A DNA stretch of 47,694 nt from a virus: IMG/VR virus record IMGVR_UViG_3300030618_000030, one strand, 5' to 3'. The translations under genes and the position numbers were made by a program. Under the pieces are notes generated by a model. The model was not told the origin of the DNA. It worked only from the letters and a program-made list of their open reading frames with translations, and did no database searches. This document shows, piece after piece, positions 7,943 through 9,595 of this stretch (the stretch's first letter is position 1; every line of letters starts with the position of its first letter).

Positions 7943-9595
7943 ATGATTGATTCCGCGGGCGTTATGTTTTTGTGTAATGGCAAGGTGTTGCTATTGCAAC
8001 GGCCAAACGGCGAATGGGGTTTTCCGGCCGGCAGCATTGAAGACGGCGAGACGCCCGAAGCATGCGCACGACGCGAAACGATGGAAGAAACTGGGTACGC
8101 GCATCAAGGCGACATGGCGCAACACGGTACGTACGACAATTTCTGTTTGTATTCGGCAAGCGTTGATCAATTTAACCCGGTGTTGAACGACGAGCATATC
8201 GGGCACGGTTGGTTCGGATTTATGGAATTGCCGCAAGCGCTATTTGCGGCAACCGGAACCGTGCTTAACGATGTGTTTGCGATGGATGCTCAAGAGTCAA
8301 TGCGTCAATACGACATTAACGGTTGGTTCGAAGTACCGGACAATCCATTGTCGAAAGTCGGCGTTTTTAATTATCTCGGTAAAAATATTCCGCAAGAAGT
8401 CGCTAAGGGCAATAGCGATGCAATGTTTGCTGTTTATCGACCTGCCGAAGAATTAGCGGACCCCGCGTGCGTTAAATCGTTCCGCCTCGTTCCCTGGGTA
8501 ATTCAGCACGCGATGTTAGGCGATGGAACGGCCGGGACGCTCACGGTTGATGAGAAGGTAGCCCGCGGCGTGACAGGCGAACAGATATGGTTTGATCCTG
8601 CTGACGACTTCGGAACGCTTAAAGGAAATATCAAATGTTTTAGCGAAATTCTCGCCGGTAATATTGCTGGCGGAAAAACGCCGCTGTCACTTGGGTATCG
8701 GTGCGTATATCAGTACGCACCAGGGACGTTTAACGGCATCCCTTATACTTATGTGCAGCGGCGCATACGTGGCAACCATCTTGCAAGCGTTGACGACGCA
8801 CGCATGGGGCCGGAAGTCGCCGTAATGGACGGCTTTTCATTTACTGTTGATGCAAAGGAGTTTGTCACTATGGCAACGAAGAAAATTGTAAAAAAGGCAG
8901 GCACCGCAGTTGCAGTGTTTCGCCAACGGTTGCAAGCATTCGCAACCGACGCCGCCGAAGCAATTAAGGACGGCGAAGACAAAGACGGCGAATTGAAACA
9001 AGCCGTTGAAGCAATCAGTAACGCCGTCCCGTTGCTTGAAGCAATCGAAGATTTGAAATCGGTTGGCGAAAGTGAAGACTTGGGCACGGTTGCGGGTGAC
9101 ACGATGCAGTCGCCGGGCGACGAACGTACGAAGGGTGCGAACGGGCTTGATGCCGAAGAAACGCCGGAAGAAAAGGAAAAGCGCGAGAAAGCAGAGAAGG
9201 AATCCAAAGCCGGTAAAGGCGAGGATGGTAAAGGTATGGACGCCGCCGAAGTGGGCAAGATGATCCAAAAAGCCGTTGCCGAAGCGCTCGCCGGCCGCGG
9301 CATGGACGCAAGCGAAGTCGTGCAAACGATTGCCAGCCGCGACAAACTCGCGTCGGACGTATCGGAATTTGTCGGCACGTTCGACCATTCCGAAATGACC
9401 GCGCAAGACGTAGCAGTCTATGCCGTCGACAAGCTCAAAATTCCGGCCGCAAAGGGTTCGGAAATCGGCGCCGTCAAAGCGTGGTTGCATGATCGCCCGT
9501 CGCCGCGTAAGCTGCCGACCGCATTTGCGGGCGATGCAAAAGACCGGTCCAACAAACCGTCGTTCGTATCGGCGCAAGTGGCCGAACGCTCGTAA
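7943..9595 (+). CDS. Nudix hydrolase domain fused to a DUF2213-like scaffold/prohead-protease-like protein (550 aa)
   Basis: Complete Nudix box G30-x5-E-x7-RE-T-M-EE-T-G-Y (nt 8030-8098). It is followed by ...[24 protein letters not shown]... and an acidic/Lys-rich, coiled, scaffold-like C-terminus. Confidence 0.75.
   Translation: [550 protein letters not shown]

Follow-up and report, generated by a model that had tools for sequence, protein, structure and literature searches.

A gene at positions 7943..9595 (+ strand) of the 47,694-nucleotide IMG/VR virus record IMGVR_UViG_3300030618_000030, the whole of which is referred to here as the window, was found to encode a Nudix hydrolase joined in frame to a DUF2213/Pa193_gp24 head domain and a scaffold-like tail. 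The reading that we favour, with a probability of roughly 0.55, is that the Nudix domain is an effector loaded into the virion, co-assembled by way of the scaffold part of the protein and acting early in infection. Packaging of Nudix and ART fusions to head proteins was already proposed, on computational grounds only, by Iyer et al. 2022 (PMC9503650), and the virion-packaging interpretation given here is a rediscovery of that published hypothesis.

The full-length product, of 550 aa and ~59 kDa, is read from one uninterrupted open reading frame (ORF). After the TGA at 7925 there is no in-frame start but ATG 7943, without which the conserved AAGxxF first Nudix strand would not be included. The Nudix module (aa 1-113; 7943..8281, +) was delimited by the Pfam NUDIX profile (PF00293; aa 4-97, E 9e-17, 61.8 bits against a cutoff of 21.1), by AlphaFold2 (AF2) modelling, by Foldseek and by a break in DNA homology. 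Beyond the fusion junction, at the ATG of M114 (8282..8284, +), follows a beta-rich DUF2213/Pa193_gp24 N-terminal domain (aa 121-296; 8303..8830, +), which was recognised by Pfam (PF09979; E 9e-30, 104 bits against a cutoff of 22, profile positions 1-166 of 167) and by its match to PDB 9B40 chain G. The protein ends in an acidic helical tail with a conserved C-terminal domain; in the tail (aa 310-550), 19% of residues are acidic, 15% basic and 16% Ala, and AF2 predicted helices at 322-342, 350-370 and 456-515. The original prediction of a Nudix domain fused, with no intervening stop codon, to a DUF2213-like module and an acidic tail was borne out by the 550-aa ORF and by the two Pfam matches, and the Pfam and PHROG assignments of the neighbours agreed with its placement of the gene between a Mu-F-like gene and the capsid genes. 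The spacing of about 115 aa that it gave for the DUF2213-like module holds only if counted from the N-terminus; after the Nudix box the module starts ~70 aa on, at residue 121. The linker at aa 115-119 had a predicted local distance difference test (pLDDT) score below 50, and the full-length model had a predicted template modelling (pTM) score of 0.40; the models suggest that Nudix and DUF2213 are independent domains joined by a short flexible linker. The PHROG family phrog_3778 ('head maturation protease') matched aa 12-531 at E 3e-116 and thus spans both the Nudix and the DUF2213 parts, so the fusion is already contained within a PHROG family. Many DUF2213 proteins, with or without Nudix, have at their extreme N-terminus a motif of ~40 aa, MPLxxGSxxxxxxxNxxxxxxxGxxxxQAxAIAYS, for which no Pfam match was found; it is present, for example, in P0003, P0005, P0009, BcepB1A gp26 (L001 4860-5000) and the A5 consensus.

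The complete Nudix box at residues 30-52 (8030..8098, +) was read directly from the sequence exactly as it had been described, as G30-x5-E36-x7-R44E45-x2-E48E49-x-G51-Y52, with T-M as x2 and T as the residue before G51, and the Pfam NUDIX match covers it. Translation of the window in all six frames gave no other canonical Nudix box, and 200 shuffled versions of the window contained none at all. The pLDDT was above 90 over aa 1-110. In Foldseek, the module matched the Aquifex diadenosine tetraphosphate (Ap4A) hydrolase 3i7u with an E value of 1.6e-8, and the probability was 1.00 for 3i7u, 4dyw, 1ktg and NudC; phmmer matched it to 3i7u at E 1.8e-9. The solved structures nearest to it were small Ap4A/ApnA hydrolases, with NudC, Dcp2 and RppH-type enzymes next. 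R20, G30, E33, E36, R44, E48, E49, E84 and W90 were invariant in all 54 fused homologues and E45 was present in 53 of the 54, and this conservation of catalytic residues held down to ~40% identity. The mean identity of homologues to the window protein was 47%, 64% and 40% for the Nudix, DUF2213 and tail parts, respectively; as the Nudix value falls between the other two, the Nudix domain evolves like the structural parts. Its residue conservation points to a domain that is probably an active, catalytically intact enzyme. A search of a large protein database with the 113-aa Nudix domain alone found no candidates. Classic substrate markers downstream of the Nudix box were reportedly described by Dunn et al. 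1999; of these, Pro at +15/16 after the box was not found in the window protein. Assignment to a substrate class was not possible, the +15/16 and +18 markers being uninformative, the NCBIfam models below cutoff and the T4 NudE match restricted to the box. The domain was also rejected as an orthologue of NudE, the similarity lying around the box and not along the full length.

Evidence that the carrier protein is a head component came from gp24 of Pseudomonas phage Pa193. PDB 9B40 chain G, which is this protein, matched the window protein at E 4.5e-32 in two stretches, the DUF2213 domain and the C-terminal region, the latter aligning with gp24 residues 369-445. Pa193 gp24 matched the DUF2213 profile at E 1.6e-46, and PF09979 is named 'Pa193_gp24' in newer Pfam releases. 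The gene for gp24, a 'putative scaffolding protein', is followed directly by the decoration (gp25) and capsid (gp26) genes, in the same arrangement as in the window; unlike the window protein, gp24 has no Nudix domain, and the two are only ~30% identical. Liquid chromatography-mass spectrometry of mature virions detected Pa193 gp24, and its residues 286-326 were resolved as a helix-turn-helix that sits as a pentameric plug beneath each five-fold vertex in the capsid interior; the authors, who called the protein a scaffold, could not tell whether the rest of it is cleaved or merely disordered (PMC11456595). By analogy with this single experimental case, the carrier family would be internal to the head and partly retained there. 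In the HMMER alignment, the helix-turn-helix at 286-326 of gp24 fell on window residues ~361-400, which are partly predicted to be disordered; the helix, acidic turn and helix modelled by AF2 in the window protein lie at 322-370, which differs from the HMMER placement.

Two internal ATG codons bear on how the scaffold part is made. An internal ATG at about 8283 had been thought able to yield an unfused scaffold. The codon is indeed present at 8282-8284 (M114, MDAQESM), but no Shine-Dalgarno (SD) motif was found upstream of it in the window, and, of 67 distinct fused relatives, 56 had Met at this position and only 2 of those 56 an SD-like motif. ATG 8282 is thus probably not a working start in the window, and an unfused protein initiated there was rejected. 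Unfused homologues begin at the alignment column of M114, which identifies the Met of this 'A-M-D' junction as the vestigial start codon of an unfused DUF2213 ancestor. In contrast, ATG 8870 (M310) was preceded by AAAGGAG (8854..8860, +) and a 9-nt spacer. At this position Met was present in 72 of 73 distinct relatives, and an SD-like motif accompanied it in 70 of the 72 compared to a background of 11-14%. The residue before the Glu at this internal SD varied (K, T or M) while GGAG was kept, which indicates a constraint at the nucleotide level. The likely nested start is therefore 8870, from which a scaffold gene would run in frame to the end of the full-length gene (8870..9595, +; M310-S550, 241 aa).

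The same anatomy is seen in the closest cultured relative, gp26 of Burkholderia phage BcepB1A (AY616033), which was 40.7% identical over 98% of the protein. Like the window protein, gp26 consists of Nudix, DUF2213 and tail, occupies the slot after a MuF-like gene and contains a nested in-frame gene, gp25, annotated as 'scaffold protein'; unlike it, gp26 is 578 aa long and carries a segment of ~45 aa ahead of the Nudix domain. The BcepB1A record describes gp26 as 'head maturation protease, COG3566' and leaves the Nudix domain unmentioned. In phage Mu, gpI (protease) and gpZ (scaffold) are likewise encoded between the portal and MuF genes on one side and the capsid genes on the other (in Mu directly before the major capsid gene), as a full-length product and an internally initiated scaffold with a common C-terminus, an arrangement that for the window is predicted. 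Mu gpI differs in having no detectable sequence similarity to the window protein (hhalign probability 0.6%), in belonging to Pfam PF10123 and in carrying no cargo domain. The conservation of the SD motif at M310, the annotation of gp25 and the analogy to Mu I/Z together make it most likely that the gene yields a 550-aa protein and a 241-aa scaffold from 8870 that share their C-terminus.

The survey of whether relatives keep the fusion, which the original prediction had proposed, was run, and the fusion was found to be kept. Among the 120 best clusters of the large protein database, PF09979 and PF00293 occurred together in ~98, at identities as low as 36%. In IMG/VR, 542 stretches encoded relatives, and 76 of the best 80 loci matched from query residue 7 or earlier and hence included the Nudix domain. 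A profile of the DUF2213 domain found 11,535 clusters (50% identity level) at E <= 1e-3; among the best 150 representatives, 45 had at least 100 aa N-terminal to the domain and a Nudix domain was present in 41 of these 45, so that ~27% of the nearest DUF2213 cluster representatives (best 150) have an N-terminal Nudix. The Nudix-DUF2213 fusion is common, not rare. Pantoea phage PdC23 gp04 (553 aa) combines a Nudix domain with a much more diverged DUF2213 in the slot between MuF and the capsid gene, and Klebsiella phages Chronis, RothC and RothD have the same Nudix at the corresponding genome position. The PdC23 protein (L094 3625-5286) is annotated 'nudix hydrolase' only, whereas it actually consists of Nudix, diverged DUF2213 and an acidic tail. 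The gene downstream of gp04, at the expected cement/decoration position, is annotated 'endosialidase', an annotation that may be wrong.

Comparison of fused and unfused relatives showed how the Nudix part is bounded. The DUF2213 domains of unfused P0025 and fused P0002 were 97% identical, and their loci, L083 and L088, had 79-82% DNA identity on both sides of a region in which homology breaks exactly from the MuF stop to the DUF2213 start. When the window was compared to the unfused relative L083, the break in DNA homology lay at window 7927..8303. The Nudix module thus behaves, in these sequence comparisons, as a cleanly bounded, swappable accessory cassette, and the existence of an unfused relative with a 97% identical carrier domain indicates that it is not required for head assembly. 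Among relatives, the interval between MuF and DUF2213 is a hot spot of variable content. The slot of L083 (4301-5004) contains two ORFs of 60 and 172 aa in place of Nudix, that of L085 (3034-3663, -) a reverse ORF resembling HNH/EndoVII homing endonucleases, and that of Burkholderia phage Bm1 (L002 4986-6029) a free-standing Nudix gene and three small ORFs between MuF and DUF2213. Except for the HNH/EndoVII-like ORF of L085, the ORFs that replace Nudix in unfused relatives had no Pfam match. Nudix is also a free-standing gene in Ralstonia phage PQ43W.

The same Nudix clade was found on a second head protein. In the Burkholderia phages Bcep1, Bcep43, Bcep781 and BcepNY3, a Nudix domain with 46-49% identity lies at the C-terminus of the portal; in the Bcep1 portal gp18 (L091 2264-4360) it occupies aa 579-682 of 698. 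RefSeq names Bcep1 gp18 'portal protein' with the note 'similar to membrane-localized nudix hydrolase family proteins'. The head module of these Bcep1-like phages is of the same type as that of the window and comprises the portal, a MuF-like 'head morphogenesis' gene, a DUF2213-matching gene ('head maturation protease'), a minor head protein and the major capsid protein; unlike in the window, Nudix is on the portal and the DUF2213 gene is unfused. Nudix fusions to MuF were reported by Iyer et al. 2022 (PMC9503650). Moreover, the N-terminal slot of DUF2213 homologues was found to hold other effector domains, namely ADPrib_exo_Tox in P0084 (two contigs, L089 1383-3716 and L090 930-3263), a PARP-type ART in P0237, LPD3 in P0143 and P0165, and a PBECR1 nuclease in P0232 and P0233. 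These domains usually occurred together with Nudix; the window protein itself has none of them. The Pfam names of LPD3 and PBECR1 allude to polyvalent proteins and to phage nucleases, and packaging of polyvalent proteins into virions was proposed by Iyer et al. 2017 (PMC5512222). Effectors of the polyvalent-protein type seem to have in the DUF2213 protein a second anchor besides MuF. Presence of the same Nudix clade on portal and DUF2213, and of ART, PARP, LPD3 and PBECR1 in the same slot, is evidence that the head location of Nudix was selected for. As in the fusions of polyvalent proteins and MuF toxins (PMC5512222, PMC9503650), an enzymatic effector is fused in the window protein to a head-internal protein; unlike in those, there is a single cargo domain and not an array, the anchor is DUF2213 and not MuF, and the cargo is N-terminal and not C-terminal. 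In phage T4 (L096 1417-3491), the immediate neighbours of nudE are the lysozyme gene e and the genes ipIII and ipII for internal proteins, and this placement in a head-cargo neighbourhood was remarked on by Iyer et al. 2022 (PMC9503650).

Whether the carrier could also process itself depends on the nature of the DUF2213 domain. H189, S249, H279 and D296 were invariant across the family and in Pa193 gp24. In assemblin-type proteases the order is His...Ser...His, and the four invariant residues resemble it in their order along the sequence alone. The AF2 model of the domain had a pTM of 0.73, and the T4 gp21 protease came first among its PDB fold matches. In BFVD, fold matches to proteins annotated as capsid maturation protease reached E ~3e-4, and human cytomegalovirus (HCMV) protease was 13th among the PDB fold matches. 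The Pa193 capsid protein was modelled from residue 66 onward only, which was counted among the points that favour a protease. It is possible but unproven that DUF2213 is a prohead protease.

These findings can be combined into the following course of events, in which the steps differ in how probable they are. A Nudix cassette would have entered the gap that separated the MuF stop from the former start codon of DUF2213. Since the full-length and nested products share the C-terminal scaffold, the full-length form should, like Mu gpI with gpZ, co-assemble with the 241-aa product in the procapsid, and the Nudix domain would be carried into the procapsid as its cargo. Maturation cleavage may then free the domain, or it may be left tethered in the head, and it would leave with the DNA and hydrolyse a compound of the type nucleoside diphosphate linked to another moiety (NDP-X) early in infection. 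Candidate substrates are a dinucleoside polyphosphate, ADP-ribose or an NAD-derived signal, or an NDP-type RNA cap. We consider entry into the procapsid likely, and put retention in the virion followed by delivery at somewhat short of an even chance. The suggestion of the original prediction that Nudix is targeted to the capsid has therefore gained comparative support, from Pa193 gp24 in the virion, the nested scaffold start, the portal fusions and the effector domains, although not proof; head packaging of Nudix is well supported by comparison, though unproven. A bolder extension, which we hold possible but doubtful, is that the N-terminus of the DUF2213/scaffold protein is, across a very large family of phage head proteins, a general cargo slot with Nudix as its default payload, and that the payload stays in the mature head, is ejected with the DNA and destroys a nucleotide immune signal of the host or an NDP-type RNA cap (ADP-ribose-derived, dinucleoside polyphosphate or NAD cap) within seconds of entry, before phage gene expression. 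A functional analogy for loading into the head and delivery with DNA is given by T4 Alt and the internal proteins IPI-III, which are targeted to the capsid, processed by gp21 and injected with the DNA, as summarised in PMC9503650. T4 differs from the window in that it uses a short N-terminal capsid-targeting peptide and not a fusion to a protease/scaffold. The T4 Nudix enzyme NudE, annotated as active on FAD, ApnA, ADP-ribose and NADH, is free-standing, unlike the Nudix domain of the window.

The main rival to delivery with the virion is that the Nudix domain acts late in the infected cell only, where it might clear away a nucleotide signal or a toxic nucleotide at the time of head building, that the fusion couples its expression to the late head operon, and that the domain is cleaved off or excluded, at the latest during assembly, and never delivered. 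The Nudix module is dispensable and often swapped, it is free-standing in Bm1 and in Ralstonia phage PQ43W, in T4 the annotation 'internal virion protein' belongs to ipII and ipIII and not to the nearby nudE, a free-standing nudix hydrolase gene, and a literature search found no proteomics that places a Nudix domain in any virion, all of which agrees with a late role. However, a covalent fusion is unnecessary for coupling expression, and a late role leaves aside that the same clade sits on two head-internal proteins, at the C-terminus of the portal and at the N-terminus of DUF2213, besides the MuF fusions of Iyer et al. The slot also takes ART, PARP, LPD3 and PBECR1 domains, typical of virion-delivered polyvalent proteins, and even the free-standing Nudix copies lie within structural modules. 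We regard an exclusively late role as rather unlikely.

Much less probable is that Nudix serves the assembly or maturation of the head, either as a nucleotide-sensing regulator of DUF2213 or by hydrolysing nucleotides in the procapsid during packaging. Its constant position directly N-terminal to DUF2213 in this family would fit such a role, as would the conserved catalytic residues, which indicate that the chemistry matters; yet Nudix is absent from relatives that share 97% identity with a fused homologue in the carrier domain, it is on the portal in Bcep1-like phages and free-standing in Bm1, and AF2 gave no confident packing between the domains, as seen in the pTM of 0.40 and the linker pLDDT below 50. 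An artefact, whether a sequencing or assembly error that merged two genes or a chance Nudix-like motif, is effectively refuted. Some relatives do have Nudix as a gene of its own, and an ATG is kept at the junction, but the architecture was found in more than 90 protein clusters and many independent contigs, in 76 of the best 80 IMG/VR loci, in the Sanger-era genome of cultured BcepB1A and in PdC23, and the Pfam E values of 9e-17 and 9e-30 and the 200 shuffles without a Nudix box speak against a chance resemblance. The fusion is thus no assembly or frameshift artefact.

Several observations weigh against a virion-delivered Nudix effector, which nevertheless remains the reading that we prefer. 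A literature search found no proteomic or biochemical data on any fused member and none on packaging of the Nudix part; nor did it find experimental work on virion Nudix proteins, on the PdC23 or Chronis proteomes or on delivery of Nudix fusions. Pa193 gp24 is without a Nudix domain, and its virion map shows residues 286-326 only. The ease with which the Nudix module is lost shows that it is not essential. The window protein lacks the ~40-aa N-terminal motif that most relatives have, because the in-frame TGA at 7925 excludes an upstream extension. With respect to the enzyme, none of the NCBIfam models reached its cutoff for the Nudix domain, and equivalogs therefore gave no substrate class; the aromatic residue at +18 after the box was F or Y across the family and not a fixed Tyr; and the similarity to T4 NudE was confined to the box region, with 33% identity over 61 aa and 51 columns in hhalign. 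With respect to release, the best PDB fold match of the DUF2213 model, T4 gp21 (5jbl), was weak (E 0.088, probability 0.41, template modelling score 0.33-0.38), hhalign of the DUF2213 profile against Mu gpI and against T4 gp21 gave no signal, and a hidden Markov model search of the PDB with DUF2213 found Pa193 gp24 only and no prohead protease. As the protease role of DUF2213 is unproven, release of Nudix by cleavage is speculative.

The gene is part of a head module in which the portal and MuF genes precede it and the cement and major capsid genes follow. In the window these are the portal (5432-7066; Pfam/PHROG), the MuF-like minor head protein (7047..7940, +; Pfam Phage_Mu_F E 1e-10, phrog_324 E 1e-65), the stop of which is 2 nt ahead of the ATG at 7943, the cement/decoration protein (9632-10135, +; Pfam Phage_cement, phrog_3645) and the major capsid protein (10165-11328, +; Pfam Major_capside, phrog_264). 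The order portal, MuF, DUF2213, cement and capsid was complete in L083, L085 and L088, and its part from MuF to capsid was seen in L089. Bases 1-127 of the window are identical to bases 47568-47694, and this exact terminal 127-bp direct repeat indicates a circularly closed assembly; the window is a complete, circularly closed phage genome, 47,567 bp in length. Its gene content is typical of a virulent BcepB1A-like myophage and includes small and large terminase subunits, portal, MuF and the head module, sheath, tape measure, baseplate and fibres, as well as DNA polymerase, helicase, a primase-like protein, a single-stranded DNA-annealing protein and an exonuclease. Comparison at the DNA level with a phage collection found no close phage, and no tRNA genes were found in the window. 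The small terminase gene (Terminase_2; 43291-44100) is upstream of the large terminase gene (2757-4376); the two are not adjacent but ~6.9 kb apart across the circular junction, with many small ORFs between them. To judge from its NrS-1 polymerase helix-bundle domain and DUF5906, the 874-aa protein encoded at 40509-43133 may be a replication protein of the primase-polymerase/helicase type.

As the concept is already published, the window adds an example and its anatomy and not a new idea, and a specialist would not be surprised by it. What the survey adds is the frequency of the fusion (about a quarter), the clean borders of the cassette and a slot shared with ART, PARP, LPD3 and PBECR1. The interest is mainly that of a testable system, since cultured phages in which it can be tested directly exist (BcepB1A, PdC23, vB_Kpn_Chronis and RothC/D). 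If the Nudix domain is delivered with the DNA, these phages would bring into the cell a pre-made enzyme that acts before any phage gene is transcribed. The principle would be that of T4 Alt or the P1 Dar proteins, except that the targets would be small nucleotides or RNA caps, and such a strategy would bear on how phages evade nucleotide-signalling defences.

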